Source: Dehalococcoidales bacterium
Lineage (GTDB): Bacteria; Chloroflexota; Dehalococcoidia; Dehalococcoidales; RBG-16-60-22
DNA length: 53,545 bases
Direction of reading: 5' to 3'
Assembly: GCA_050014355.1 (NCBI GenBank)
Contig: JBEKDL010000003.1
Span: 1 to 53,545, forward strand
The notes under the pieces were generated by a model that had not been told where the DNA came from, ran no database searches, and saw only the letters and a program-made list of their open reading frames with translations. A program made the position numbers and the translations under genes. Positions 4,829 through 46,070 of this stretch are shown piece after piece. The stretch's first letter is position 1. Each line of letters begins with the position of its first letter.

Positions 4829-5422
4829 ATGAAAAAAAGCAATGCCCTGGCCGGGTTCAGGCCGCTACGCGGTAGTAAAATAGAGGGGAAAAGAATCAGG
4901 CTCCGCGAGAAAAAGCTCTCCGATGTCCGCAACGACTACAACTGGCAGCGTGACCCGGGACTGGCGAGGTTCGATGCCGTCCCGGTGCTGGAGATGCCCT
5001 TCGCGCTTTACCTGCTGGATTACACCACCGAGATTAAAAAACCCAGGCATAACCGCTTTCCCCTGGCTATCGAGACCGTTGAAGGTAAACATATCGGCAA
5101 CTGCACCTGCTATGAAATCGATGAAAAGAAGGGTGAAACGCAATTCGGTATCATGATCGGCGATGCCGCTTACCGCGATAAAGGCTATGGCCAGGATGTC
5201 GTCGATACTGTAGTCTCCCACATTTTCCGTAACACGAGCCTCAACCGCGTTTATCTCAAAACCCTCGACTGGAACCTGCGGGCGCAGACGTGCTTTAGCA
5301 GGTGCGGGTTTACGCCCTGCGGCCAGCTCCGGCGCGATGGCTTCAGCTTTATACTTATGGAGCTGAACCGGGAGCTGTGGGAAAAGGGGCGGAGTGGAGA
5401 AACAGGGGATGGGGTCCATTAA
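4829..5422 (+). CDS. GNAT acetyltransferase, RimJ/RimL-like
   Basis: GKHIGNC, GIMIGD..YRDKGYG and N.RA..CF..CGF motifs. Confidence 0.85.
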   Translation: MKKSNALAGFRPLRGSKIEGKRIRLREKKLSDVRNDYNWQRDPGLARFDAVPVLEMPFALYLLDYTTEIKKPRHNRFPLAIETVEGKHIGNCTCYEIDEKKGETQFGIMIGDAAYRDKGYGQDVVDTVVSHIFRNTSLNRVYLKTLDWNLRAQTCFSRCGFTPCGQLRRDGFSFILMELNRELWEKGRSGETGDGVH

Positions 5423-6452
5423 AGCTTATTATCAGCCCATCGCCTGGCGCGGCGACCGTGTTATCATCCTCGACCAGACACGCTTGCCACAAGAGGAAAT
5501 ATACCTTGAGCTCAATGATTACAGGGCCGTGGCCGCCGCTATCAAAACGCTGAAAGTCCGCGGTGCACCGGCCATCGGCATCGCCGGGGCTTACGCTGTC
5601 GCCCTGGGCGCTTTAAAAATAGATGCTACCGCGCCCGGCGAGTTCCTGGAAAAGCTGCAAAAAATCAGTGACGCCGTGAGCGCCACCCGCCCCACCGCGC
5701 GCAACCTCTTCTTCGCTTTAGAGAGCATGAAAAAAGCCTCGGAAAAAGGAGAAAATATCGCGGTCATCAAAAAAGCGCTCATCGACGAAGCCGTTAAAAT
5801 CCACGATGAAGAGGCGGATGCCACTCGCCGTTTGAGCCGATTCGGGGCGGAGCTGATTAAGGATGGCTGGATAGTGCTGACCCATTGCAACACCGGGCCG
5901 CTGGCCGCTCCCGACTACGGCACCGCTTTAGGGGTTATCATCGCGGCGCATAAGCAGGGGAAAAGGGTAAAAGTCCTCGCCACCGAGACCCGCCCGCTTT
6001 TACAGGGCGCGCGGCTGACGACCTGGGAGTTGCAAAAGGCCGGCGTGCCGGTGACGCTGATTACGGATAGCATGGCCGGTTCGTTTATGAGGCGGGGGAA
6101 AGTTGATTGCGTCATCACCGGCGCCGACCGCATCGCCGCTAATGGGGATACCGCGAACAAAATCGGCACATACACGCTGGCGGTGCTGGCCAAAGAAAAT
6201 AAAATCCCGTTCTATATCGCCGCGCCGACCTCCACCATCGACCGCTCGCTGAAAACGGGAGATTCGATACCAATCGAGGAGCGCAAGCCGGAGGAAGTGA
6301 CACACTTCCAGGGCGTGCCCATCGCGCCGGAGGGCGTGAGCGCCGCCAACCCCGCCTTCGACATCACCCCGCATAAGTATATCACCGCTATCATTACCGA
6401 GAAGGGCATTATCAGGGCGCCTTACAGCACGGGGATTAAGGGGATTCTCTAA
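5409..6452 (+). CDS. mtnA: S-methyl-5-thioribose-1-phosphate isomerase
   Basis: LDQTRLP, VRGAPAIG, TRPTA.NL, LTHCNTG, ETRPLLQGARLT, GADRIAANGDTANKIGTY, NPAFDITP. ATG 5409 preferred over GTG 5394. Confidence 0.95.
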   Translation: MGSIKAYYQPIAWRGDRVIILDQTRLPQEEIYLELNDYRAVAAAIKTLKVRGAPAIGIAGAYAVALGALKIDATAPGEFLEKLQKISDAVSATRPTARNLFFALESMKKASEKGENIAVIKKALIDEAVKIHDEEADATRRLSRFGAELIKDGWIVLTHCNTGPLAAPDYGTALGVIIAAHKQGKRVKVLATETRPLLQGARLTTWELQKAGVPVTLITDSMAGSFMRRGKVDCVITGADRIAANGDTANKIGTYTLAVLAKENKIPFYIAAPTSTIDRSLKTGDSIPIEERKPEEVTHFQGVPIAPEGVSAANPAFDITPHKYITAIITEKGIIRAPYSTGIKGIL

Positions 6453-6460
6453 CCCCAACA

Positions 6461-6483
6461 AAAGAAAAAACCCCTCGCGGGGT
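6461..6483 (-). terminator. Intrinsic terminator (minus strand)
   Basis: Minus strand reads ACCCC-GCGA-GGGGT followed by TTTTTCTTT: a GNRA-loop hairpin plus U-tract. Confidence 0.65.
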
Positions 6484-6510
6484 CAGTAATCTTTTTTCAA
6501 TTGTTCATAT

Positions 6511-6540
6511 ATTATACCATATTATTTAATCAAATGTCAA
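6511..6540 (-). promoter_or_regulatory. Near-consensus minus-strand promoter with no CDS downstream
   Basis: Minus strand: TTGACA (6540-6535), 18 bp spacer, TATAAT (6516-6511) with extended TG. Confidence 0.6.
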
Positions 6541-6607: not shown

Positions 6608-6710
6608 TGTCATTGCGAGGCCGAAGGCCGCGGCAATCTCCATCATCAGCTTAACTAGAGATAGAGATTCTCACGTCGTCCCGATTAAATCGGGACTCCT
6701 CAGAATGACA
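6608..6710. repeat. Palindromic MITE/REP-like element, copy 1 (TGTCATT...AATGACA)
   Basis: Terminal inverted TGTCATT/AATGACA, internal hairpin GTCCCGATT-A-AATCGGGAC; 3' half nearly identical to 20936-20980. Confidence 0.8.
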
Positions 6711-6818
6711 AGATAATACGGGGCTTGCGCTAGACATAAAGCTATCCTATACTTTAGGTACATTTAATGGGGAATATAGGAGCAAGGTAGACATTATATG
6801 TAATAGGAGATAAATAAG

Positions 6819-7673
6819 GTGGAGAGGAAGAGTATAGGAAGATTTCCTGAGGGTGTTTTGGAGCATATATCAAAAACTATCGGTGATTATAGGACAGGCT
6901 CTGAAATTGCAGAACTTCTGAGGAATGCTGGGTATCCAGAAAAGGGTTTTGTTGTTGGCACTAAGTGGAGATTCCTTTATGAAATTTTCAAGGAATTCAA
7001 CAACAAGCCAGAAGGACAATATCATATAGCTAAAATTGTTCAGGCATTCTGTGAACCAACACAATGGATTGGTAGGAGTTCTGAAAATAAAAAAGTAATG
7101 GATATCCTTAACGAGGGACTTTTACATGTTAATCTTCAACTTAATGAGAACTGCAAAATTATTATTACTCAAAAAAGAATAATTCATACTAACAAAGAAG
7201 AAACAATAGAGTTGCCAAAAGAACCTAGGGTTTTGACCGTCTTCCCTATTTTTACAGCGAGAGATTTTCTGTTAGAGCAGGATTTATGTTTTGTTCTTAT
7301 ACCTTTTAAACCTTCTTTTGATAGACTATATAAAGAAAAAATAAAACCTTGTGTTGAGGCTTGTAAATTTAGATGTCTGAGGGCAGATGATTTATTTTCG
7401 CCGACTCCAATTCTGGAGGATATTTGGGTTCATATTTGTAAGAGTAAAGTCATTGTTGCCGATGTAACCGGCAGAAACTCGAACGTATTCTATGAAATTG
7501 GCATAGCTCACACGGTAGGTAAGCCTGTTATTATTATCACTCAAGATAAGGCTGATGTTCCCTTTGATGTATCACAGTTTAGATATTTCTTGTATTCTGA
7601 TGATACTCAGGGTTGGACTAAACTGTACAATGACATTTCATCAGCGCTTAAAAGTATAATCTCTGGAAGTTAA
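6819..7673 (+). CDS. AT-rich two-domain protein: AbiJ/TIGR02391-like N-terminal domain plus nucleoside 2-deoxyribosyltransferase (NDT)-like C-terminal domain; candidate defence gene
   Basis: C-terminal CFVLIPF...RADD...IWVHI.KS.VIVADVTGRNSNVFYEIGIAH..GKPVIII.Q....PFD is the NDT-like signature. N-terminal TGSEI..LL...TKW..LY resembles the TIGR02391/AbiJ-type N-domain (from memory). GTG start with SD AGGAGA; visibly AT-rich. Confidence 0.7.
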   Translation: MERKSIGRFPEGVLEHISKTIGDYRTGSEIAELLRNAGYPEKGFVVGTKWRFLYEIFKEFNNKPEGQYHIAKIVQAFCEPTQWIGRSSENKKVMDILNEGLLHVNLQLNENCKIIITQKRIIHTNKEETIELPKEPRVLTVFPIFTARDFLLEQDLCFVLIPFKPSFDRLYKEKIKPCVEACKFRCLRADDLFSPTPILEDIWVHICKSKVIVADVTGRNSNVFYEIGIAHTVGKPVIIITQDKADVPFDVSQFRYFLYSDDTQGWTKLYNDISSALKSIISGS

Positions 7674-7698: not shown

Positions 7699-8574
7699 AT
7701 GTCCCCATCACAGGCTAGAATCGGCGTTATCGGCGGAACGGGATTGTATGATATCGAGGGGCTGACGGACGTGAAAGAGGTCCGGCCAGAAACGCCCTTC
7801 GGCAAGCCGTCTTACGCTATCGTGGTGGGGAAACTGGGAAGGGTGGGCATCGCCTTTCTGCCGCGCCACGGCAAGGGCCACCGCATCTCCCCTACCGAGG
7901 TGCCCTACCGCGCCAACATCTACGCCCTTAAAGCGCTCGGCGTGGAGTTTATCATCTCCTCCAACTCCTGCGGCAGCTTTAAAGAGGAGCTTAAGCCCGG
8001 CCACCTCCTTATCCCCGACCAGATTATCGACCGCACTCGCCAGCGCATTAGCTCCTTCTTCGGCGAGGGCGTCGTCGCCCATATCCAGTTCGCCGACCCG
8101 TTTTGCCCCGTCTTGAGCAACATCGTCTATCAAGCAGCTAAAGAGGCCGGCGCCACCGTCCACCAGGGCGGCACGTTCGTCGCCATGGAAGGCCCCGCCT
8201 TCTCCACCCGCGCCGAGTCGCGCCTCTATAAGTCCTGGGGCGCGGACGTCCTCGGCATGACCGTGCTGCCGGAAGCCAAGCTCGCCCGCGAGGCGGAAAT
8301 CTGCTACGCTTCCATCGCCTGCATCACCGACTACGATAGCTGGCGCGAGACGGCGGAAACCGTGACCGTAGATGCCATTTTAACAATCATGAGGAACAAC
8401 ATCGACTTCGCCAAAAAGACCATCAAGCTGGCGGCGGGAAGGGTGCCGTCAGTGCGCCGCTGCGTCTGCGCCAGCGCTTTAGGCCCCGCCCTCGTCACCG
8501 ACCCGGCGGCCATGCCCGCGGCGACGAAAAAAAAGCTCGACCTGCTTATCGGGAAATACATTAAAAAGAGATAG
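7699..8574 (+). CDS. mtnP: S-methyl-5'-thioadenosine phosphorylase
   Basis: IGVIGGTG, TPFGKPS, LPRHG.GH, MEGPAFSTRAES, GMT..PEAKLAREAEICYA, TDYD. Strong SD GAGGAGG. Confidence 0.95.
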   Translation: MSPSQARIGVIGGTGLYDIEGLTDVKEVRPETPFGKPSYAIVVGKLGRVGIAFLPRHGKGHRISPTEVPYRANIYALKALGVEFIISSNSCGSFKEELKPGHLLIPDQIIDRTRQRISSFFGEGVVAHIQFADPFCPVLSNIVYQAAKEAGATVHQGGTFVAMEGPAFSTRAESRLYKSWGADVLGMTVLPEAKLAREAEICYASIACITDYDSWRETAETVTVDAILTIMRNNIDFAKKTIKLAAGRVPSVRRCVCASALGPALVTDPAAMPAATKKKLDLLIGKYIKKR

Positions 8575-19434: not shown

Positions 19435-19455
19435 TAATGTTTGCCGGGTGAAAAG

Positions 19456-20634
19456 ATGAAAATACTCTGTGTGTTATTACCGCATTTCCCGCTGATGTGT
19501 GAAGTCCGGAGAAATCCGGCCCTCGCCGGCCGTCCGGCCATCGTCACCCGCGCGGAAGGCTCACAGAAGCTGGTGCTGGACTATTCCCCGGGGCTCGAAA
19601 GCCTGCTACCCGGTATGCCCCTCCAGGCAGCCCTGGCCCGCCACGGGGGAGCCGAGCTGGTACAGGCGGACCTGCCCTGCTACCGCTCTGTCTGGAACGG
19701 CATCCTGGACGCGCTGGAGCTGAAAAGCCCGCTGGTGGAAGGCGCCGCGCCGGGTTGCGCTTATATCGGCCTGGACGGACTGCAGCTCATTTACCCGGAA
19801 GATGGTGCTGTCATTACCGCCGTGCGGGAAGCGATACCGGAGACCTTCGCCGTGCAGATAGGGATAGCCGGGAACAAGTTCCTGGCCTACCTCGCGGCCC
19901 TGCATAGCCCCGCGGGCGGACAGAAGATACTGACCGGTAACGCGGCCGCTTTCCTTGAAGACCTTCCCGCCGATGTCCTCCCCATCTCGATGGAGAGCAG
20001 GGACAAGCTGCACGCCTTCGGGATGCGTACCCTCGGGCAGATAGCGGCCCTGCCCCCCGGCCCCTTACAGGCGCAGTTCGGCCCGGAGGGGAAAAGGCTG
20101 TGGGAGCTCGCCAGAGGGCACGATGACACCCCCCTTTACCCCCGCATGATGGAAGAGAACATCGAAGAGAGCACCCTGCTGACCTCGGCGACCGTTTCCC
20201 TGGACGCCATCGCGGTCACGGCGGAAACGCTGCTGGCCAGGGTCTTTACCCGGACAGCCCCAAAAGGCCTGGGCATCCGCAGCCTGACCTTCTGGACGCG
20301 CAGCTGGAGCGCGGGCCAGTGGGAGCGGAGCCTGCGCTTTAAAGAGCCGGCGATGGAAATCAAAAGCGTCATCACCCGCGTCCGGCGCACGCTGGAGGAC
20401 TACCCCCAACCCGGCCCCGTCGAGCAGGTGGGGTTGAGGATTACGGGGCTGGGCCGCCAGTCGCGGCGGCAGAAAAGCCTCTTCGCCGATATCAGGGCAC
20501 AGGAGCACCTCATGGACGATATCAAGCAGATGGAACTCCGGCTGGGCGGTAACCAGGTGTTTAAAGTTAAGGAGGTGGAGCCATGGTCGAGAATACCGGA
20601 ACGTCGCTACACCCTGACGCCGTTAAACCGGTAA
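19456..20634 (+). CDS. imuB: ImuB-like inactive Y-family polymerase
   Basis: Y-family features (GMPL..A.A, SPLVE, YI.LDGL, GIA.NKFLA, LH.FG.RTLG.IA.LP...L.AQFG.EG) without the catalytic acidic residues; upstream of dnaE2. ATG 19456 preferred over TTG 19441. Confidence 0.85.
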   Translation: MKILCVLLPHFPLMCEVRRNPALAGRPAIVTRAEGSQKLVLDYSPGLESLLPGMPLQAALARHGGAELVQADLPCYRSVWNGILDALELKSPLVEGAAPGCAYIGLDGLQLIYPEDGAVITAVREAIPETFAVQIGIAGNKFLAYLAALHSPAGGQKILTGNAAAFLEDLPADVLPISMESRDKLHAFGMRTLGQIAALPPGPLQAQFGPEGKRLWELARGHDDTPLYPRMMEENIEESTLLTSATVSLDAIAVTAETLLARVFTRTAPKGLGIRSLTFWTRSWSAGQWERSLRFKEPAMEIKSVITRVRRTLEDYPQPGPVEQVGLRITGLGRQSRRQKSLFADIRAQEHLMDDIKQMELRLGGNQVFKVKEVEPWSRIPERRYTLTPLNR

Positions 20635-20867
20635 ACACGCCGGAGCCGGTGCGCGTTGAAGAAGGCCCCGCCGGACTGCCGCTGGCGGTCAGGCTGCCGA
20701 ACCGACAGCGCGTGGCGGCCATCGAGGACCGGTGGCGCATTGATGACGAGTGGTGGCGGACCGAACCGGTCTCGCGCATTTATTACGTGGTGCTGCTGGC
20801 CTCGGGGGAGAAGCTGGCGCTGTATCAAGACCTCATCAGTGGGGAATGGTACAGGCAGGGGGGATAA
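20583..20867 (+). CDS. Small mutasome-associated protein (DUF6504-like)
   Basis: P.PVRV.....G.P, V..IEDRWRIDDEWW..P.SR.YY.V, LYQDL..G.WY.Q. Strong SD AAGGAGGT inside imuB. Confidence 0.78.
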   Translation: MVENTGTSLHPDAVKPVNTPEPVRVEEGPAGLPLAVRLPNRQRVAAIEDRWRIDDEWWRTEPVSRIYYVVLLASGEKLALYQDLISGEWYRQGG

Positions 20868-20883
20868 AAGGAGAAGTCAAAAA

Positions 20884-20980
20884 TGTCATTCTGAGGGAGC
20901 GTAGCGACCGTGAGAATCTATCTCAAGCCTAAATGGATTCTCACATCGTCCCGATTACATCGGGACTCTTCAGAATGACA
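20884..20980. repeat. Palindromic MITE/REP-like element, copy 2
   Basis: Perfect 11-bp terminal inverted repeat TGTCATTCTGA...TCAGAATGACA; internal hairpin GTCCCGAT-TAC-ATCGGGAC; matches 6608-6710. Confidence 0.82.
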
Positions 20981-20985
20981 AACGC

Positions 20986-21037
20986 TTTGAGTTTTGCGCT
21001 GTGGTTTTGAGATTTGACTTTTAACTTTTAAGCTTTT
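20986..21037. repeat. Heptamer tandem repeat element
   Basis: GCTGTGG TTTTGAG ATTTGAC TTTTAAC TTTTAAG CTTTT directly upstream of the dnaE2 ATG. Confidence 0.65.
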
Positions 21038-21041
21038 ATCT

Positions 21042-24000
21042 ATGGACTACGCCGAGCTTCACTGCCACAGCTATTACTCCTTTCATGACGGTGCTTCGTC
21101 ACTGGAAGAACTGATGGTGCGCGCTAAAGACCTCGGCTACCGCGCCCTGGCCGTCACCGACCACGATAACCTCTGCGGGGCAATGTGCTACGCGCAGCTC
21201 GCCCGCTCCCTGAAGATGCAGGCCATCACCGGAGCGGAGATAACGCTCAAAGGCGGTTATCATCTAACCCTCCTCGCTAAAGACCGGCAGGGCTACCGCA
21301 ACCTCTGCCGCCTTATCACCGCCGCTCATGCCTCCGGCGAGCGCAATAGCCCCGGGCTGCCGCCCGAGCTCCTGCCGGAGCATGCCGCCGGCCTGATAGC
21401 GCTCTCCGGCTGCCCGCAGGGAGAGCTGGCGCAGTTTGTCGTCAAAGTCCGCTATAACGAAGCGCGCAAGCTGGCCGGGCAGTATCTCGACTGGTTCGGC
21501 GCGGAAAACTACTACATCGAGCTACAGCACAACCTTGCCCCCGGTGATAGCGAGCGCAATAAAAGGCTGCTCGCTTTAGCTCAAGAAACAGGCATTAAAG
21601 TCGTCGCGACGGGCAACGTCCACTATCACGTTAGAGAGCGCCACCAGCTGCAGGACTGCCTGGTCGCCATCAAAAACTGCAAAAGCCTGGAGGAGACCCA
21701 CCGCGAGCGGCGGCCGAACTCGGAGTATTACCTGCGGCCGCCGCAGGAGCTCGAGTTTATCTTCAAAGAATGCCCCGAAGCCCTGCAAAACACGGTGGAA
21801 ATCGCCGGGCGCTGTACTTTCGATTTAACCAAAGACCTGGACTATGTTTTCCCCGATTACCCCGCCCCCGAAGGCTATACGCCGGAAAGCTACCTGGAAA
21901 AGCTCTGCCGCGAGGCGGCCGTAAGGCGCTACGGGTCTATAACGCCGCAGGTACAGGAGAGGCTGGCGGAAGAGTTCCGGCTCATCAATAAATACAACCT
22001 GGCAGGCTTCTTGCTGATGTACCACGAGGTCATCAAACTGGGGCGGGAGGTGATGCTCGACCTGGGTTTGAGCGACCCGTCCCTGACCGTCGAGGAGAAC
22101 CCGCCGGGGAGGGGCCGCGGCTCGTCGGTGGCGCTACTGGTGGGCTACCTCATCGGCCTGTCCCACATCGACCCGCTCAAATATAACCTTTCGCTGGAGA
22201 GGTTCCTCCCGGCGGACGTTATGACCAACGTGCCGGACATCGACCTCGATTTTCCGCGCAGCATCCGCGAGGAGCTTATCCTGCGCACGCATCAAAAATG
22301 GGGCTGGCAGCACGCCGCTCTCGCCGGCACCATCGCCACCTACATGGTCAAGGGCGCCGTAAGAGACCTGGGCAAAGCGCTGGGGCTGCCGCTGGTGGAA
22401 ATCGACCAGCTGTCCAAGTTCGTCGACTGGGGCAGCGCCCGGAAGCTGGCCCGGAAGATGGAGAAAATGCCCAATTTCAAGGAAAAGATAGACGCCCCGG
22501 TCTGGCGCGACCTGGTGCGGCTGGCGGCTGAACTGGACGGCTTCCCCAAGTACATGGGACAGCACCCGGGCGGTATGATTTTATCCTCCACCCCCCTCAC
22601 CGATATCGTCCCCGTCCAGCGGGGCGCCATCGAGGGGCGGTACGTCTGCCAGTGGGACAAGGACAGCATCGATGACGCGGGCTTCGTCAAGATAGATTTT
22701 CTGGCCCTGGGCGCATTATCCCAGCTCCAGGAGGCCATCGAACTCATCAAAGACCGCACCGGAAAAAGAATCGATATGTCCCGCATCGATTTCGAGGACG
22801 CCGCCGTTTATGACATGCTCTGCCGGGGGGACACCATCGGCATCTTCCAGGTGGAGTCGGCGGCGCAAATGCAGACCATCACCCGCCTCCGCCCCCGCAA
22901 TCTGCTGGACATGGCACACGAGGTGGGGGCAGTGCGGCCGGGGGTGGGCGTCAACCACGGCGTGCAGGAGTACCTGGCGCGGCGTACTAAAAGAAAGCCT
23001 GTAACATATGACCACCCGCTGGAGAAACGCGCTTTAGAGCGCACGCTGGGCGTGGTGCTTTTCCAGGACCAGGTAAACCAGCTGGCGATAGACGTGGCCG
23101 GCTTTGCCCCCAGCGAGGCCGACCGCCTGCGCCGCGCCTTCGGCCGGAGGCATAACGAGGAGCTCATCGAGCGGTACCGCCAGCAGTTCCTGGCCGGGGC
23201 GGCTAAAAACGGCGTGCCTGAAGAAGCAGCGGAGACCATTTTTAAGAAGTTCAACGGCCAGTACATGTTCCCGGAGTCACACGCCTTCGCCTTCGGGGTG
23301 ACGGCCTACCAGGCGTCCTGGCTGAAATATTATTACCCGCTGGAGTTCTTCGTGGCCATCTTCAACCAGCAGCCTATGGGCTTTTATAACCTGGAGACGC
23401 TGAAGGAGGACGCCAAACGGCACGGGATTATCGTGCTGAACCCGGATATAAATAAGAGCCGGGCTAAATGCGTTATAGAAGACGGCTCCCTGCGCCTGGG
23501 TCTCCTTAATATTACTAGCCTTGGCGAGGTCACCGCGAAAGCGATTGAGCAGGCGCGGGGAAAAGGCGGGGCTTTCAGAAACATCGGCGAGTTCCTGGAG
23601 CGTACCGGCGTGCTGGAAGAGGTCGCTCTCAACCTGGCCTCCGCCGGCGCCTTCGACGCTCTGGAGCCGAACCGCCGCAAGGTGAAGTGGGAAATCGGCC
23701 TGCGCTACCGGCCCATCAATACCCAGCTGCCTTTACCCCTCCCCGTGACGCAGGACATGATAGAGCTGGCAAAGCCCGGTGCCTGGGAGAGCATGCAGGA
23801 CGAGTACAGCGTCCTTAGCCTCTATCCCGGCGGACACGTCATGGCCCGGCTGCGCCCGCGCCTGGGTAAAAACCTGACTACCAGCCGGGACATCGATAGC
23901 CTGTGCGACGGCGCCGCGGTAAGCATTGCCGGGCTGGTCATCCGCCGGCAGAGGCCGCGCGGCAAAGTGGTCTTCATCACGCTGGAAGATGAGTTCGGCC

Positions 24001-24179
24001 ATGTGCCGTGCATGGTCTTCCCCAAAGTGTACGAGCGCTACGAGCACCGGTTCAAAGAGCCCTTCTTGATAGTGAAAGGCCGGCTCTCCCGGCGCGAGGG
24101 GACGCACAACGTGGTCATCAACCAGGTAAAATCTTTCAGCGCCCTGGATAAGGTGCCCGGCTCAAAGGACTTCAGGTAG
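21042..24179 (+). CDS. dnaE2: Error-prone DNA polymerase III alpha subunit DnaE2
   Basis: PHP motif YAELHCHSYYSF.DGAS, GRGS, PDIDLDF, QHPGG, KIDFLALG, FQVES.AQM, FPESHA, NQQPMGFY, FITLEDE and C-terminal SKDFR (DnaE2 SRDFR-like tail); lies downstream of imuB. Confidence 0.93.
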   Translation: MDYAELHCHSYYSFHDGASSLEELMVRAKDLGYRALAVTDHDNLCGAMCYAQLARSLKMQAITGAEITLKGGYHLTLLAKDRQGYRNLCRLITAAHASGERNSPGLPPELLPEHAAGLIALSGCPQGELAQFVVKVRYNEARKLAGQYLDWFGAENYYIELQHNLAPGDSERNKRLLALAQETGIKVVATGNVHYHVRERHQLQDCLVAIKNCKSLEETHRERRPNSEYYLRPPQELEFIFKECPEALQNTVEIAGRCTFDLTKDLDYVFPDYPAPEGYTPESYLEKLCREAAVRRYGSITPQVQERLAEEFRLINKYNLAGFLLMYHEVIKLGREVMLDLGLSDPSLTVEENPPGRGRGSSVALLVGYLIGLSHIDPLKYNLSLERFLPADVMTNVPDIDLDFPRSIREELILRTHQKWGWQHAALAGTIATYMVKGAVRDLGKALGLPLVEIDQLSKFVDWGSARKLARKMEKMPNFKEKIDAPVWRDLVRLAAELDGFPKYMGQHPGGMILSSTPLTDIVPVQRGAIEGRYVCQWDKDSIDDAGFVKIDFLALGALSQLQEAIELIKDRTGKRIDMSRIDFEDAAVYDMLCRGDTIGIFQVESAAQMQTITRLRPRNLLDMAHEVGAVRPGVGVNHGVQEYLARRTKRKPVTYDHPLEKRALERTLGVVLFQDQVNQLAIDVAGFAPSEADRLRRAFGRRHNEELIERYRQQFLAGAAKNGVPEEAAETIFKKFNGQYMFPESHAFAFGVTAYQASWLKYYYPLEFFVAIFNQQPMGFYNLETLKEDAKRHGIIVLNPDINKSRAKCVIEDGSLRLGLLNITSLGEVTAKAIEQARGKGGAFRNIGEFLERTGVLEEVALNLASAGAFDALEPNRRKVKWEIGLRYRPINTQLPLPLPVTQDMIELAKPGAWESMQDEYSVLSLYPGGHVMARLRPRLGKNLTTSRDIDSLCDGAAVSIAGLVIRRQRPRGKVVFITLEDEFGHVPCMVFPKVYERYEHRFKEPFLIVKGRLSRREGTHNVVINQVKSFSALDKVPGSKDFR

Positions 24180-34949: not shown

Positions 34950-36140
34950 ATGTCACTCGACCTGACCAAAGTAGCGGCCCAGGTGGGCGAGATGATAGCC
35001 GGCCTCAAGGACAGCCGCGCGGAAAGAGACCGGCGCTTACATTTCGCCCTTGAGACTCTCGGCAGCCCGGCCATCGACCTCGACGCTTTAAAGAAGAAAG
35101 TCAAGGCCGGCAAAACGACTTGGCTGGTGGCCGAACTCACGGAAGGGCTGAATAAGCGCTATCCCGCGCCGTCCACCCCTGCTGATTTTACCGTCCTCGC
35201 CACGGACGGCTCGCATATCGATGTCGACCGCCACCGCGCGGCGCGCTGCTACCTGATAAACATCGGCGCGGTGGCTATCAGCTACGGCAGCCAGCCGGAG
35301 GCTTCTTTATCGAGTAATCCCCGTCTTTACTCCGATGACAAAGACCTAGCCATCTCCGCGCCGGGCGGCGGGCGCGAGCAGATAATCGAAGGGGCGCTGC
35401 TCGGGGCAAAGCGCTCCGTCGAGGAGTGCCGCCGTCTGGCCAGTTTAGCCGCCACCCTGCCCATGAATGGCTCCGCCCTGGCTTTGCTCGACGGCACGCT
35501 TATATTGTGGGGGCTGGAGGCCTATCCAGATTTCGTCCGCGACGCCCTGGTCGCCGGCGGACTGCTGCCCTGCCTGGACGCGATGAAGAAGCTCAACAAT
35601 GGCCGTAAACTGGCGCTGGCCAGCTACATCAGCTTCCCGCGCAGCACGGACGTGGTAAACGTTTTACGCGTGGCCGTCTGCCCTAACGACATTCCCGACT
35701 GCGACAAACAGTGCCCCAAAGATAGAGCCTGTGACGGCCTGGCCGGCGTACGCGACCGCGATATCTTTACGGAACTGCTGGATAACCGTGAACGCTCGGC
35801 GCTGTTCATCAGCCCGTCGAAAATAGTTAAAGAGCTTTACGGCGAGCACCAGATATATTTCTTTTACCTCAAGTCCGGCGAGGAGATAGCGCGAGTCGAG
35901 GTGCCGCAGTGGGTGGCCGAAAATGAAGATTTGCTCAATCTCACCCACAGCCTTGTTTTAGACCAGTGCCGGCGCGGCCACGGCTACCCGGTAGCGCTCT
36001 CCGAGGCCCACGAGCAGGCGGTGGTCACCGGTGCGGATAGAGAAAACTTCCAGGAACTGATAGAATCAACACTGATAGAAGAACATCTGCCTAATCCTTC
36101 CTCCGGAAAAAGCTTCAGTAAAAGGACGAGGTGGGTTTGA
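34950..36140 (+). CDS. nurA: DNA double-strand break repair nuclease NurA
   Basis: LATDGSHI, LLDGTL..W, E.ARVEVP.W, GYPVALSEAHEQAVV; herA downstream. Confidence 0.9.
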   Translation: MSLDLTKVAAQVGEMIAGLKDSRAERDRRLHFALETLGSPAIDLDALKKKVKAGKTTWLVAELTEGLNKRYPAPSTPADFTVLATDGSHIDVDRHRAARCYLINIGAVAISYGSQPEASLSSNPRLYSDDKDLAISAPGGGREQIIEGALLGAKRSVEECRRLASLAATLPMNGSALALLDGTLILWGLEAYPDFVRDALVAGGLLPCLDAMKKLNNGRKLALASYISFPRSTDVVNVLRVAVCPNDIPDCDKQCPKDRACDGLAGVRDRDIFTELLDNRERSALFISPSKIVKELYGEHQIYFFYLKSGEEIARVEVPQWVAENEDLLNLTHSLVLDQCRRGHGYPVALSEAHEQAVVTGADRENFQELIESTLIEEHLPNPSSGKSFSKRTRWV

Positions 36141-36146
36141 GAATAA

Positions 36147-36179
36147 CTTAAAACTCAAAGGTTAAAAGTCAAAACTACA
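36147..36179. repeat. Heptamer tandem repeat element (reverse orientation)
   Basis: CTTAAAA CTCAAAG GTTAAAA GTCAAAA CTACA is the reverse complement of the type at 21001-21032. Confidence 0.65.
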
Positions 36180-36189
36180 TGGATACAAA

Positions 36190-36603
36190 ATGAAAAAAAT
36201 CCTTCTTATCAGTCTAGTTCTTGTTACGATTTTGTTTGGCGCCTGCATCGTCGGGAAAAATCCGACTAACCCAAATACGTTGCCGCCCTCGCCGACGCCG
36301 ATTGAAATTACCGCCGTCCAGCTTTACAAAGAATATAAAAACAATCAAACGGCGGCAGACAAGAAGTATAAAGGGAAGGAGTTTACCGTTTCCGGAGCGG
36401 TACAGGAAATAGGCAAAGACCAGTCTGGAACACCGTATTTGCTCTTGGCCGCCGGAGAAAATATGACCAATGGAATCTATTGTACTTTCCCCGATAATTA
36501 TGACACGATATTAGCCAGGTTGAATATAGGACAAAACGTCGGTATCACCGGAGTAGGCGTGGGATTCAAGGATGGAAATGTGCTGTTGGACTCGACGCAC
36601 TAG
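36190..36603 (+). CDS. OB-fold lipoprotein (tRNA_anti-like family)
   Basis: Signal peptide with lipobox LFGAC, Pro/Thr linker, ITA.QL..EY..N...AD.KYKGK...VSG.V..I and L..GQ.V.I.G motifs. Confidence 0.82.
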   Translation: MKKILLISLVLVTILFGACIVGKNPTNPNTLPPSPTPIEITAVQLYKEYKNNQTAADKKYKGKEFTVSGAVQEIGKDQSGTPYLLLAAGENMTNGIYCTFPDNYDTILARLNIGQNVGITGVGVGFKDGNVLLDSTH

Positions 36604-36612
36604 GAGAAACAA

Positions 36613-37533
36613 ATGAATAAAGGGCTGCTCGCGGGCATTATTGTTCTCGCACTGGCGCTGGTGGGCACCGTTATTTACGGGATGGGAGTTATCAAAGATA
36701 AAAACACCCTGTCCACCGAATTGCAATCGGTTAAAAGCGAACTGGCTTCCGCGCAGGGGGAGCTTACCTCCACGAAGCAATCGATGACTTCAACTAAAGC
36801 AGAACTCGACTCTACCAGGGCTACGCTTACCTCGACACAATCAGAACTCACCGCCACTAGAGACACGCTTACTTCAACGCAGTCACAGCTTTACACCACC
36901 AACCAGACGCTCGCGTCAAAGCTCGTCGAGCTCAACTCCGCTAACGATAAATATGCTTCCGCGCAAAAGTCCTTGACGACCGCCCAGGATACGCTGACGA
37001 CTACCCAGAAAAAGCTGGCCGCGGCGCAGGACACATTAAACGGATTGGGCATAACCGTGGCCTCCAGCGTGGAATGTTATGATATTAAACTTACCGATAA
37101 CCAGACCGCCAGGAATCCTACCTGGAAGGAGCTGAAGGACTTCCTCGCTAAAGACAAGACCGAAAATCACGCTTACATCGCCAATGAATACGATTGTTCG
37201 CAGTTTTCCCGCGACCTCCACAATAACGCCGAAGCGGCGGGAATCCGGACATCCGAGGTGCAGGTATATTTCAAAAACGAAAATGTGGGCCATGCCCTTG
37301 ACGCGTGCCTGACGACCGATTACGGCCTGATATATGTAGATTGCACCGGAGCACCCGATAAAATAGACTATGTTAAAGTTAATAAAGTATTTAAGGGCGT
37401 GCAGGTGGACTGGATGGTCAGCGCTGCCAATGCCCGAAATGACGTCTGGTGGGACTCACAGAATATGTATTATTACCTGAAATCCAGCACGGGCGGGCAA
37501 TTGGTAACGTCACAGATTAGAATTTTCTGGTAA
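36613..37533 (+). CDS. Membrane-anchored coiled-coil protein with C-terminal transglutaminase/papain-like domain
   Basis: N-terminal TM, long L-T-S-T-x-x-x heptad run, then NPT..EL..FL..D.T....Y....YDCSQFS..LHNNAE..GIR, GHAL and GLIYVD (candidate Cys-His-Asp triad). Confidence 0.75.
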   Translation: MNKGLLAGIIVLALALVGTVIYGMGVIKDKNTLSTELQSVKSELASAQGELTSTKQSMTSTKAELDSTRATLTSTQSELTATRDTLTSTQSQLYTTNQTLASKLVELNSANDKYASAQKSLTTAQDTLTTTQKKLAAAQDTLNGLGITVASSVECYDIKLTDNQTARNPTWKELKDFLAKDKTENHAYIANEYDCSQFSRDLHNNAEAAGIRTSEVQVYFKNENVGHALDACLTTDYGLIYVDCTGAPDKIDYVKVNKVFKGVQVDWMVSAANARNDVWWDSQNMYYYLKSSTGGQLVTSQIRIFW

Positions 37534-37567
37534 ATAGTCAGATTATTTTTCAAATAGGGAGGTAACG

Positions 37568-37654
37568 ATGGGCAGTAAAGGCAGAAAGAACGTCAAGAAA
37601 CCCAAGCAGAACAAGGGCAAGGGACAGGCCGCACCTGATACCAAGAAGAAATAA
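37568..37654 (+). CDS. Lys-rich mini-peptide (28 aa)
   Basis: Below ORF-track cutoff: MGSKGRKNVKKPKQNKGKGQAAPDTKKK, preceded by strong SD GGGAGGT. Confidence 0.62.
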   Translation: MGSKGRKNVKKPKQNKGKGQAAPDTKKK

Positions 37655-37680
37655 GGGGTGAATTCAGGTAAAACCCTTCT

Positions 37681-37798
37681 TCATTTCCCCCTTCCCCTGC
37701 GAGGGGAAGGGGGATTAAGGGGGATGGAGTCCTTAAAAACTCATTCCCCCTCTCCTGCGGAACGCCTCGCCAGGAGAGGGGGACACAGGGGGTGAGGT
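37681..37798. repeat. Tandem pair of GC-rich REP-like hairpins
   Basis: 13-bp perfect stems TCCCCCTTCCCCT/AGGGGAAGGGGGA (37686-37714) and TCCCCCTCTCCTG/CAGGAGAGGGGGA (37745-37783); each is preceded by TCATT and followed by an AGGGGG-containing tail. Confidence 0.8.
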
Positions 37799-38385
37799 TT
37801 ATTATTAAGCAAGCGCGAGACAAAATCGCGGAAATTATCGAAGCTTCAACGGCGCAGTTTATCGCCCAGAGCTATGAGCTTTATGAGCTGCCGCCTCTCG
37901 GCAGCCTCGTGAAAACCGGCGATATTTACGGAATCGTTTGCCATGCCGAGACTGCCGGCATTGAGCCGGGACGCCGTCCTATCGCGCGCGGTAGGGATGA
38001 AGCCTCGGAAGAAGCCGTCTATCAGTCCAGCCCGCAGTTAGCCAAGCTCTTGCGCAGCGAGTTCACCGCGGTGGTGGCGGGGTATAAAAACGGGGGGAAA
38101 TATTACCATTATTTGCCTCCCCAGCCCGCCCGCATTCATGCCTTCATATACTTATGTCAACCCGATGAGGTCAAGGAGTTCAGCCAGTCTTTCGGCTTTC
38201 TCAATATTTTAGTCAACGCCTCCCTGCCTGTCCCTAACGGGGAAGTCATCGCCGCGGTGCTAAGGCAGATGAGCCGGGCGCATGAGGACAGCCGCTCTTT
38301 CCTGGTGGGGGCGGGGAAAGAATTGGCGAACCTACTAAGCGCGGATTTCCTGCGATTGAAAAACATCCTGGGGAGGCTCCAATGA
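37792..38385 (+). CDS. Stand-alone HAS-barrel domain protein
   Basis: IAEIIEAST..F.AQ.Y.L...PPLGSLV, IEPGRRP.A.G, P.L..LL..EF, YLPP.PA.IH; overlaps the herA start (ATGA). Confidence 0.75.
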   Translation: MRFIIKQARDKIAEIIEASTAQFIAQSYELYELPPLGSLVKTGDIYGIVCHAETAGIEPGRRPIARGRDEASEEAVYQSSPQLAKLLRSEFTAVVAGYKNGGKYYHYLPPQPARIHAFIYLCQPDEVKEFSQSFGFLNILVNASLPVPNGEVIAAVLRQMSRAHEDSRSFLVGAGKELANLLSADFLRLKNILGRLQ

Positions 38386-39989
38386 CGGATAAGCTCGGCA
38401 TCGTGACGACAGCCTCGCTGGAAAAAGGCGTCGATGTACGCCTGGATGTCCCCGTCTCGGTGGAGGACATGGTGGTGGGACGCTATGTCACCATCGAGGG
38501 GCAGAAACGCCGCTTTTTCGGGATGATTACAGATGTCAGGCTGGGCGTCACCGATGAGCGCCTCGCCGTTTCCCCGCCCGATGTCAACGACCCCTTTATC
38601 GCCGAGGTCTTGAACGGCACGAGCACTTTCGGGCAGATACACGTCACTCCTATGTTGACCATCGGCGGCGACGCCAAAAGCTTGCTGGAAGGCCCCCAGC
38701 CGGTAAAGACCATTCCCGCGCACTTTTGCCCGGTCAACCTGGCCTCCGAGCGGGACATGGAGCTTGTCTTCGGGAAGGAAGACCCGCAGCGCTTTCACAT
38801 CGGCAACCCGCTGGACATGGAGACCAAGCTCTGCCTCAACCTGGTGGAGTTCGTCAAGCGCTCCAACGGCATCTTCGGTAAGAGCGGCACCGGCAAGACT
38901 TTCCTGACACGTATCCTGCTCATCGGAATGTTGCAAAAAAGCAAGGCCGTTAATTTGATTTTCGATATGCACAACGAGTACGGCTGGCAGGGCACGTCCG
39001 AAAGCGGCCCGGCGGTCAAAGGCTTAAAACAGCTTTTCCAGTCTAAAGTCGCCGTCTTTACCCTCGATGAAGAAAACTCGCGGCGGCGCGGCGTCAGCAC
39101 CGACTTCGTGGTGAAAATCGGCTACGATGAAATCGAGCCGGAGGACATCGTCCTGCTGCGCCAGACGCTCAACCTCACCGAGCCCGCCGTGGAAGCCGTC
39201 TACCAGCTAAGGCGGCGCTTCGGGAAAAGCTGGATTCAAAACACGCTGGACATCGAAGGTGGGGAGGACACTAAAGAGCTTCTCGACTCCATGAGTATCC
39301 ACGAGAGCACTTTCCAGAACCTCAAGCGCGGGCTGGGCACCATCCGGCGGCTGCCCTTCATCGAGCCGCATGCCCCCGTCGATGCCGTAAAAACTATCAT
39401 CGAACATCTCGATAGGGATATCAACGTGGTGCTGGAGTTCGGGCGCTACCGGGATATCACCGCTTATGTTTTAGTCGCCAATATGCTGGCTCGGCGCATC
39501 TATATGCAATACCAGTCGCGCACGGAAAAGGCCATGGCCGAAGGCGCGGCACCACCCCACCCGCTGGTCATCACCATCGAAGAAGCGCATAAGTTCCTCA
39601 ACCCCGAGGTGTCCGGGCAGACCATCTTCGGCACCATCGCCCGCGAAATGCGTAAATATAACGTCAGCCTGCTCGTCATCGACCAGCGTCCCAGCGGCAT
39701 CGATAGCGAGGTGATGTCGCAGATGGGCACCAAGATAACCTGCCTCCTTGATAACGAGCGCGATATCGACGCCGTCCTGGCCGGAGTGTCGGGCAAGAAT
39801 GAGCTTAAATCGGTGCTGGCCCGCCTGGCGCCCAAGCAGCAGGCGCTTATCTTCGGACACGCGGTGCCGATGCCGGTGGCCTTCCAGCCGCGGGAGTACG
39901 GCTCCGCCCAGTCTTATAAAGACCTGGTTTCTTCAGGCCGGCCCCGGACGGAAAAGGCGGATAAAGACATCGAAAAATTGTGGGAGTAG
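38382..39989 (+). CDS. herA: HerA helicase/translocase ATPase (DUF87)
   Basis: N-terminal HAS-like region, Walker A GIFGKSGTGKT, FDMHNEYG, Walker B ITIEEAHKFL, IARE.RKY, VIDQRPS.ID.EV.SQ. Confidence 0.9.
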   Translation: MTDKLGIVTTASLEKGVDVRLDVPVSVEDMVVGRYVTIEGQKRRFFGMITDVRLGVTDERLAVSPPDVNDPFIAEVLNGTSTFGQIHVTPMLTIGGDAKSLLEGPQPVKTIPAHFCPVNLASERDMELVFGKEDPQRFHIGNPLDMETKLCLNLVEFVKRSNGIFGKSGTGKTFLTRILLIGMLQKSKAVNLIFDMHNEYGWQGTSESGPAVKGLKQLFQSKVAVFTLDEENSRRRGVSTDFVVKIGYDEIEPEDIVLLRQTLNLTEPAVEAVYQLRRRFGKSWIQNTLDIEGGEDTKELLDSMSIHESTFQNLKRGLGTIRRLPFIEPHAPVDAVKTIIEHLDRDINVVLEFGRYRDITAYVLVANMLARRIYMQYQSRTEKAMAEGAAPPHPLVITIEEAHKFLNPEVSGQTIFGTIAREMRKYNVSLLVIDQRPSGIDSEVMSQMGTKITCLLDNERDIDAVLAGVSGKNELKSVLARLAPKQQALIFGHAVPMPVAFQPREYGSAQSYKDLVSSGRPRTEKADKDIEKLWE

Positions 39990-44230: not shown

Positions 44231-44866
44231 ATGAGTATTGTTGATGATATTCGCTCCCTTGCATTGCGTTATTCTAAAGAATTGAAAACGCAAATCTCCA
44301 ATCGTGTAGAGGAAATGGAGAAGGATGATACATCCTATTATCTAATCTACACCGTTTTAGGTATTTCCAATGAAGAAGGCAAGCTAATAGATGTGTACCA
44401 AAACAAAGGTCGTTTTTTATATAAATATGCTGGTTCTTTCTTAGAAGATGCCGCGAAGTTATGTTTTAAATATAAGTTCCCAAATTCCAAATCCATGCGT
44501 ATCCCAAACACTGAAGGCAGCCGGCCTAAAACTTTTGAGATAGATTGTGTTATTAGTCAAGAGGCGATAGAAGTTAAATGGCGTGATGCCACGACTGATG
44601 GTGACCATATTACTAAAGAACATACACGAATAAAGACTATAAGTGATGCTGGTTATACACCCATACGTGTTATGTTTTACTATCCGAATCGTGGGCAAGC
44701 AATGCGTATTCAGCAAACTATAGAGTCAATATATCGTGGGTTAAACGGCAAATATTATCATAGTGATGCAGCATGGGAATATATTAAAACTAAAACTACT
44801 ATAGATTTGAAGGGTATTCTGGTAACTCTTGCTAAAGAGCGAGGCATTTCTAACAATGAAAAGTGA
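44231..44866 (+). CDS. Type II restriction endonuclease, ApaLI/XbaI family
   Basis: YQNKGRFLYKYAGSFLE, PKTFEIDC, EVKWRDATTDGDHITKEH (PD-(D/E)xK-like D...EVK), P.RVMFYYPNR. Confidence 0.85.
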   Translation: MSIVDDIRSLALRYSKELKTQISNRVEEMEKDDTSYYLIYTVLGISNEEGKLIDVYQNKGRFLYKYAGSFLEDAAKLCFKYKFPNSKSMRIPNTEGSRPKTFEIDCVISQEAIEVKWRDATTDGDHITKEHTRIKTISDAGYTPIRVMFYYPNRGQAMRIQQTIESIYRGLNGKYYHSDAAWEYIKTKTTIDLKGILVTLAKERGISNNEK

Positions 44867-46070
44867 AGTATATATAGGCGATTGCCTAGAAATAATGAAA
44901 ACATTCCCTGAAAGTAACATAGACTTTGTGTATCTTGACCCGCCATTTTTCACAGGTAAAACACAAGAACTAATGACTAGAGACCGAACAGTGCGATTTT
45001 CGTTCTCTGATGCTTGGAAAAGTGCTGATGATTATACAACCTTTCTTTACAATAGGCTTTTAGAGATCAAAAGGATATTAAAAGATACTGGCTCAATATT
45101 TTTCCATTGTGACCGTAATGCCTCACATATTGCTAGATTTTTACTTAATAACGTATTTGGCGAAAATATGTTCCAATCAGAGATTATATGGCAATATCGA
45201 AGATGGTCAAACGAACAAAAAAGGCTTCTACCTGCACATCAAAACATACTTTTCTATACTAAGTCTCAAAATTATAAATTTAATACGATATATTTGCCTT
45301 ATTCGCCAGCAACAAATGTTGACCAAATACTTCAAAAGCGAGTTAGAGACAAACATCATAAATCTATCTATGCTATCAATGAAAATGGTGATACCATTTT
45401 TAATGGTCATAAAAAAGGTGTCCCTCTTGCGGATGTGTGGGATATACCATATTTAAATCCTAAAGCAAAAGAGAGAGTTGGTTACCCTACGCAAAAACCA
45501 ATTCTGCTATTGGAGCGTATTATACAACTTGTTACTGACAAAAACGATACTATTTTAGACCCTTTTTGTGGTTCTGGCACAACTCTAGTCGCAGCAGAAA
45601 TGTTAGAACGTAACTGTATTGGCATAGATATCTCCGAAGATGCTGTGCGTATCACGCAAGAGCGTTTGAAGTCACCATTGAAATCTAATTCGCATCTTAT
45701 GGAATGTGGCAGAGATTCTTATAATAATGCCGATAAAGATGCGATGACATTTCTAACAGGAATAGATATCGTTCCTGTCCAAAGAAATAAAGGAATAGAC
45801 GCCTTTTTAAGGGATGATTCTGTTTGTGGGTCTATTCCTATAAGAGTGCAAAGACAGAATGAAACTTTACCTCAAGCTGCTGAATATCTCCATAAGGCAT
45901 CTATAACAAAACACGCCTCTTTAATGATTCTGGTCGCAACACATGAAGATATGGAATTGTTTGGTGATCATATATCAATACCACAAATGATAGTCGTCAA
46001 CTCAACTGCAAAATCAATTAAAGATGCTATCCAACAATCAATATTAGTTCATTCGACTACTAGCATATAG
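44856..46070 (+). CDS. Beta-class N6-adenine/N4-cytosine DNA methyltransferase
   Basis: GDCLE, motif IV YLDPPF, ERVGYPTQKP, motif I LDPFCGSGTT in beta order. ATG 44856 overlaps the REase end by 11 nt. Confidence 0.92.
   Translation: MKSEVYIGDCLEIMKTFPESNIDFVYLDPPFFTGKTQELMTRDRTVRFSFSDAWKSADDYTTFLYNRLLEIKRILKDTGSIFFHCDRNASHIARFLLNNVFGENMFQSEIIWQYRRWSNEQKRLLPAHQNILFYTKSQNYKFNTIYLPYSPATNVDQILQKRVRDKHHKSIYAINENGDTIFNGHKKGVPLADVWDIPYLNPKAKERVGYPTQKPILLLERIIQLVTDKNDTILDPFCGSGTTLVAAEMLERNCIGIDISEDAVRITQERLKSPLKSNSHLMECGRDSYNNADKDAMTFLTGIDIVPVQRNKGIDAFLRDDSVCGSIPIRVQRQNETLPQAAEYLHKASITKHASLMILVATHEDMELFGDHISIPQMIVVNSTAKSIKDAIQQSILVHSTTSI

Follow-up and report, generated by a model that had tools for sequence, protein, structure and literature searches.

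AbiJ-type N-terminal domains (NTDs) have been predicted to be sensors since 2013, when Anantharaman (PMC3710099) proposed, as a prediction, Abi-like sensor-toxin roles for the fusion proteins that carry them. In Table 2 of that paper, AbiJ-NTD1 appears both with Ymh and with a flavodoxin-fold nucleoside deoxyribosyltransferase (NDT; gi 397664865) as its fusion partner. A gene of comparable design, here called gene X, occupies positions 6819..7673 of the forward strand of a 53,545-nucleotide stretch of a Dehalococcoidales bacterium (contig JBEKDL010000003.1, assembly GCA_050014355.1; the whole stretch is referred to as the window), where it lies between the salvage genes mtnA and mtnP. Gene X probably encodes a single-gene sensor-effector antiphage protein acting by abortive infection through a phage-triggered hydrolase of NAD+ or a ribonucleotide, for which we infer both substrate and trigger. 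It is likely to be a member of the predicted AbiJ-NTD and DrHyd fusions that works like an Abi sensor-toxin, and is neither AbiJ itself nor a CBASS, Thoeris or retron protein. A preliminary description of the locus, made from the DNA letters, had not recognised the architecture as a named system, but the fusion in the 2013 table likewise joins a Ymh-fusing N-domain to a flavodoxin-fold NDT and the design is therefore not new. Unlike the present locus, neither the Dehalococcoidia family nor the site that it occupies is mentioned in the available text of that paper. In the literature searched, outside which most subscription papers lie, neither an experimental test of an AbiJ-NTD and NDT fusion nor a paper on a Dehalococcoidia defence hotspot was found.

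The other described relatives each share one part of the protein. AbiJ of Lactococcus, for which a 2026 review gives no known mechanism (PMC13064643), has a C-terminal HEPN domain where gene X has a Rossmannoid TIR/NDT fold. The PD-lambda-3 B protein (PADLOC model PDLC03987, of the Ymh/TIGR02391 type) has an N-domain homologous to that of gene X, but carries a HEPN RNase instead of a DrHyd domain and is part of a multi-gene system. It reportedly goes back to Vassallo in 2022, although the name was not returned by a text search. The NDT-like effector of retron Ec86 (Eco1) is an abortive-infection toxin that depletes NAD+ (PMC13276650), but gene X is accompanied by neither a reverse transcriptase nor multicopy single-stranded DNA, and its control would come from the fused N-domain. 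A MilB-like domain also serves as an immune effector in ThsI, the CMP hydrolase of type VIII Thoeris (bioRxiv 10.64898/2025.12.03.692087), and the CAP12/Pycsar TIR effectors (SfSTING, 7un8) have the fold and an NV.(F/Y)E.G motif in common with gene X, the same N-domain being found on CAP12 TIRs; from both of these groups gene X differs in having no cyclase, no STING, SAVED, cNMP-binding or TPR sensor and no partner gene. A Glu-bearing helix and the predicted symmetric dimer are shared with DNPH1/Rcl, MilB and NDT, but gene X has an extra N-domain, Ile or Val aligned with a DNPH1 Asp, and a score below the Pfam cut-off.

Domain architecture of gene X

Gene X starts with GTG and encodes 284 amino acids, comprising an AbiJ-NTD1/2-type domain and a DrHyd (NDT/TIR-like) N-glycosidase domain, which the AlphaFold model renders as two confident domains joined by a low-confidence linker (residues 126-139). 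The AT shift and the Shine-Dalgarno sequence noted in the preliminary description are both borne out: the GC content is 0.354, and 0.28 at third codon positions (GC3), compared to a genome value of 0.535 and flank values of 0.58/0.61, with 0.37% of 2438 equal-sized windows of the genome being as AT-rich, and AGGAG lies at 6805..6809 (+), 9 nt 5' of the start. The genome holds no paralogue.

The N-terminal helical domain (about residues 7-118; 6837..7172, +) falls into one family with the PD-lambda-3 B model and with the domain found N-terminally in Ymh/TIGR02391 HEPN proteins; it is a putative sensor or adaptor. The earlier suggestion that it is AbiJ-NTD-like is supported by relatives that are fused to Ymh (17 of the 55 scanned, best E 8.6e-17) and by a structural comparison (Atlas TM 0.82). 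HEPN, TIR or HNH effectors were found on the same N-domain in 34 of these 55 relatives, including the PD-lambda-3 B family, to which the link runs via relatives P0181, P0186 and P0125. The effectors joined to it comprise HEPN, TIR_2, CAP12-TIR, HNH and Abi_C, and in every such swap the effector, often a nuclease, occupies the C-terminal position. Gene X has been set beside the 2013 AbiJ-NTD1 fusion by its description, and neither the NTD1 nor the NTD2 family, both of which fuse to Ymh (PMC3710099), appeared in the Pfam scan results for the gene X family. A profile of the N-domain matched none of the solved structures, and fold searches with its model (pLDDT, the predicted local distance difference test, of 93) gave no significant match, which is not proof of a new fold.

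The C-terminal domain (about residues 153-282; 7275..7664, +) has a Rossmannoid TIR/NDT fold, five-stranded and alpha/beta, with a Glu on the helix after strand 3, and in the model thereby combines the fold and the Glu position that characterise the TIR-DrHyd-SLOG N-glycosidases. The motif ADVT..N.NV.YEIG.A, to which attention had already been drawn, is present at residues 214-230, and its Glu226 (7494..7496, +), the predicted catalytic nucleophile, is present without exception in the family members (54 of 54) and in the distant domains (60 of 60). The model predicts a symmetric NDT-like dimer through the Glu226-bearing helix (residues 219-234). Phe158 on strand 1 (7290..7292, +) is likewise invariant (54/54), and would correspond to the Tyr/Phe position by which deoxy-specific NDTs differ from enzymes that accept ribose (PMC11204291). 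The Asp that was mutated in solved DNPH1 structures falls, in a sequence alignment, on Ile/Val202, while the neighbouring Asp201 is kept in 53 of 54 members; together with Phe158, the lack of an aligned DNPH1 Asp may indicate a preference for ribosyl substrates.

Fold comparison of the C-domain resulted in a tie between NDT and TIR. By sequence it is closer to DNPH1 (E 2e-4) than to the CAP12 TIR (E 0.32); DNPH1/Rcl, MilB and NDT are its best sequence and Foldseek matches, and a single-sequence search of solved structures returned DNPH1 only (E 0.4). The Pfam NDT family PF05014 gave weak matches in 50 of 54 family members (best E 3.5e-4), and the CAP12/Pycsar TIR family PF10137 matched one of the 54, at an E of 0.016 that falls short of a Pfam assignment. 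The tie with TIR bears on whether the protein is instead an enzyme like Thoeris ThsB or an ADP-ribosyl cyclase, which on sensing phage would produce a nucleotide messenger for an effector encoded elsewhere. DrHyd members have been described as NADase effectors or cyclases (PMC9503650) and NDT-like active sites occur in some ThsB proteins (PMC11204291), but the predicted symmetric dimer is NDT-like, the C-terminal position is that of the effector in every swap, and none of the seven carriers of gene X in the mtnA-mtnP site has a partner gene beside it, the neighbours being mtnA, mtnP or other genes of the site. Nor was an adjacent cyclase, partner effector or reverse transcriptase, the hallmarks of CBASS, Pycsar, Thoeris and retrons, found in these seven. 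A signal-producing role is thus considered quite unlikely.

Distribution of the family

A protein search with gene X gave 540 matches among 886 candidates, of which 120 were listed; 63 of the 120 listed cover at least 85% of the query and the remainder mostly share the C-terminal half only. Among 54 aligned members the mean column consensus was 0.66 for the N-domain and 0.79 for the C-domain, compared to 0.48 for the linker. The family profile matches 26 of 363 genomes of the order, but near-full-length gene X occurs in only six, spread over three families, and in all six it lies directly upstream of mtnP. The other 22 loci of the order are matches to a single domain or a fragment at a contig end, and neither mtnA nor mtnP lies within 1.5 kb of any of them. 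A metagenome scan, which covered three loci compared to about 60 full-length homologues, yielded one mtnA-X-mtnP arrangement, one locus too short to tell and one 408-residue form elsewhere. Homologues outside the order sit in other places, for example between glyS and sbcD in a genome of another order (G338), and at L162 and L087; an archaeal relative adjoins SIR2 and ApeA genes.

Several variants of the architecture were observed. Forms of 408-424 residues (P0016, P0026 and P0036, the last at L162:623-1849) have an extra N-terminal helical domain before the gene X architecture, and L162 adjoins a restriction-endonuclease-like gene fragment. A large family of about 305 residues (L197:5361-6287, L061:7635-8567, P0068-P0120) combines the same C-domain with a different, unannotated N-domain, and its members, too, are inserted singly between housekeeping genes. 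Short relatives of the C-domain occur in staphylococcal, streptococcal and Lactobacillus temperate phages (L163:2992-3642), the one in phage SA75 lying antisense within the replication module. A possible link to PdpSau of Staphylococcus was dropped, as PdpSau is described as membrane-anchored and the staphylococcal phage homologue is a 216-residue gene of the replication module.

The mtnA-mtnP slot and its cargo

Gene X is flanked by mtnA (5394..6452, +; TIGR00512 above cut-off) and mtnP (7699..8574, +; TIGR01694 above cut-off), which starts 25 nt 3' of it. These two genes had been thought to be normally adjacent, but an intervening distance of less than 250 bp was found in only 13 of the 75 relatives whose retrieved stretch contained both genes (6/19 and 7/56), the other 62 having inserts. 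Of 33 loci surveyed from the mtnA side, 19 reached mtnP, six with the genes adjacent and 13 with inserts. From the mtnP side 80 loci were taken from the best-scoring listed mtnP matches with room upstream: 49 had inserts, seven were adjacent, 13 had no mtnA within about 5 kb and 11 ended early. The cargo is mostly co-oriented and AT-rich, and includes OLD-type ATPase-Toprim, SoFic, DNA methylases, a CAP12-TIR protein, Schlafen, HNH and NYN proteins, DUF3800, DUF2971, TcmP-like proteins with radical SAM, ParB-ASCH pairs and toxin-antitoxin pairs; in the window's own family the slot also holds GC-typical metabolic genes. Rather than a one-off insertion, gene X is one among many exchangeable genes that occupy a slot variable throughout the order.

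The position of gene X could be taken to mean that it is a metabolic nucleoside or nucleotide hydrolase acting with MtnP and MtnA in the salvage of methylthioadenosine or 5'-deoxyadenosine. In all six near-full-length cases of the order and in one metagenome locus the gene is directly followed by mtnP, with which co-transcription is likely, and the C-domain is nearer to DNPH1 than to the CAP12 TIR. However, a DUF2971 slot gene (PDC-S31) that is unrelated to gene X is just as faithful, ten of its 13 order-wide matches, the query included, adjoining mtnA or mtnP, and slot fidelity is thus a property of the site and no argument for a metabolic partnership. Furthermore, mtnP is present in 270 of the 363 genomes and gene X in six, gene X is far more AT-rich than its flanks in all seven slot carriers (GC3 0.21-0.38 compared to 0.47-0.81), the DNPH1 Asp aligns to Ile/Val, and the homologues outside the order are found away from these genes. 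A salvage role is therefore very improbable, and the site represents a hotspot and not a metabolic partnership.

A different question is whether the conflict in which gene X takes part involves phages at all, as it might act against plasmids or other incoming DNA, or be a selfish or near-neutral passenger of the slot. All of the evidence from context points to conflict and not to phage specifically, and the slot also holds toxin-antitoxin pairs (ParE-type, UPF0150/HicB-like), NYN nucleases and genes of unknown type. On the other hand, both the PD-lambda-3 B model and the Abi-type fusions described in PMC3710099 belong to the N-domain family, and the strong conservation of both domains relative to the linker argues against neutral decay. 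This explanation is regarded as unlikely.

Chromosomal hotspots that lack mobile elements have been ascribed to recombination-driven gene turnover between core genes (Oliveira 2017, PMC5635113), and the slot resembles these and the P2 defence hotspots (PMC9519451) in its rapid turnover between conserved anchors without a recognisable mobile element. It differs in that the same cargo families recur across several families of the order, with anchors only about 65-75% identical, and in that the cargo sits behind the promoter of a host gene. Among the junctions listed, no conserved recombination site was seen by eye at either end beyond the mtnP ribosome-binding site. In one genome (G025; L023:3288-3362) codons 5-29 of mtnP are present a second time, as a 5' fragment that separates the cargo from the intact gene and may be a remnant of recombination at the start of mtnP.

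A recurring slot gene of about 190-250 residues (L153:1402-2100, L319, L353, L365, L366) is a further defence candidate, which may be HEPN-like; it gave no PADLOC match in five copies and no Pfam match in the two scanned. Where the cargo is of DUF3800 type, in L364, L370, L378 and L381, a promoter-like stretch in antisense orientation comes after it, immediately ahead of mtnP; RNA motifs have been linked to DUF3800.

Promoter and expression

The element TTGCGC (6725-6730)-17-TATACT (6748-6753), at 6725..6753 (+), had been read as the gene's own promoter. The sequence is indeed there, and is conserved in the slot across the family, but it does not belong to gene X in particular: it was found in 16 of 104 slot loci, compared to 0.15 matches expected from shuffles, lying 33-45 nt before mtnP codon 5 in seven relatives and before gene X or unrelated cargo in others. 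In three other carriers of gene X there are only 2-33 nt between mtnA and gene X. The strict form is single-copy in the window's genome and, from its placement, is very likely the host mtnP promoter. Two slot loci have the element both before the cargo and before mtnP. In loci with two copies (L141:2289 and L313:3695, 4777; L323:3116, 3948) it flanks the cargo or heads each cargo gene, which looks as if cassettes arrive with a copy of the promoter. As the gap to mtnP is 25 nt, gene X is likely to be co-transcribed with it, and co-transcription with a housekeeping gene implies an off state of the protein in uninfected cells.

Evolutionary history

In the mtnA and mtnP trees genome G000 groups with G004 and G630 (bootstrap 100 and 99), whereas in the gene X tree it groups with L160 (86). 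G000 and G004 are 81-85% identical in the flanks and 60% in gene X; G000 and L160 are 66% identical in mtnA and 75% in gene X. The identity of gene X does not correlate with that of mtnP (rho -0.14). Lateral exchange of gene X into the slot is suggested by these comparisons, albeit without statistical significance. The window's genome encodes a ComEC-family competence protein and, given this gene and the many slot-faithful families, repeated exchange by recombination in the flanks is a simpler account than that of an old resident lost in most lineages.

Probable function

The proposed mechanism is as follows. Gene X would be transcribed constitutively from the host mtnP promoter, its product being kept off without infection. 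The helical AbiJ-NTD1/2-type domain would sense infection, possibly when a phage product binds or clusters the N-domains, and would switch on the dimeric TIR/NDT-fold N-glycosidase, which is predicted to destroy NAD+ or a ribonucleotide and so to arrest the infected cell. The slot cargo itself would be exchanged by recombination in the flanking genes. This sensor-effector antiphage role, proposed in the preliminary description, is backed indirectly by the effector swaps, the TIR/NDT fold with its Glu, the defence-type cargo and the patchy occurrence (6/363); the function itself is predicted.

A number of results weigh against it. The N-domain of gene X makes no direct match to PD-Lambda-3_B, and the protein clears none of the curated cut-offs, an NCBIfam scan returning nothing and PF05014 scoring 17.5 bits on gene X against a cut-off of 28.8. 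The fold of the C-domain does not separate a cell-killing hydrolase from a signal-making enzyme, and phages and plasmids yielded no full-length homologue. PADLOC matches at E<=1e-12 were made by 21 of 74 cargo proteins compared to 3 of 47 other proteins of the window, but the control is not matched, since the cargo was chosen for low GC and orientation (76 open reading frames picked by script, with five dropped and three added by hand), and 16 of the 21 matches concern candidate models (PDC/HEC). Vertical inheritance in a metabolic context, which the preliminary description had named as an outcome that would speak against defence and which a salvage enzyme would share, is not rejected, as approximately unbiased (AU) tests allow congruence of gene X with its flanks (p 0.13 and 0.62); there is also a weak correlation of gene X identity with mtnA identity (rho 0.40, Mantel p 0.02).

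A more ambitious combination can be drawn up, in which Dehalococcoidales-type bacteria have, across the order, a promoter-fed cassette slot at the junction upstream of mtnP, exchanging dozens of candidate one- or two-gene defence systems between families without a mobile element, and gene X is a minimal MyD88-like immune protein whose death-fold-like N-domain would polymerise on a phage trigger and activate a DrHyd dimer to destroy NAD+ or ribonucleotides. Taken as a whole, this combination is doubtful.

Other features of the junction and the window

Downstream of mtnA lies an antisense unit (6456..6540, -) that consists of a perfect extended -10 promoter, TTGACA-18-TATAAT, with a terminator about 20 nt on, and that would produce an RNA of about 50 nt that carries ACAAU close to the 5' end. 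The genome has one copy of the unit, which is conserved after mtnA in relatives: related mtnA/mtnP loci gave 16 matches, from 13 genomes and irrespective of cargo. It may insulate the slot from mtnA read-through. An Rfam scan of the intergenic region gave nothing near the gathering score. A palindromic repeat resembling repetitive extragenic palindromes (6608..6710, no strand assigned) was considered as an insertion signal, but this was rejected because copies are scattered over the genome, on more than 20 contigs, and only 6 of 81 slot gaps contain one. Elsewhere in the window, an AT-rich pair of an ApaLI-like restriction enzyme and a methyltransferase (44231-46070, +) is a further defence insert of foreign origin, the second in the window; NurA and HerA genes, separated by small genes, lie at 34950-39989 (+), and three genes at 19441-24179 (+) resemble an imuB/dnaE2-type mutagenesis cassette.

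Implications

Gene X alone is an expected kind of object, and the slot matters as much as the gene. If the proposed function is correct, gene X, for whose N-domain no solved structure was found, would be a compact test case for what AbiJ-type N-domains sense and for what DrHyd-fold effectors cleave, and clean comparisons are possible since this N-domain also occurs naturally on TIR, HEPN and HNH domains. For a little-cultured group of bacteria, the slot supplies a list of defence candidates that includes DUF2971, DUF3800, TcmP with radical SAM, ParB-ASCH pairs, NYN and several unknown families.
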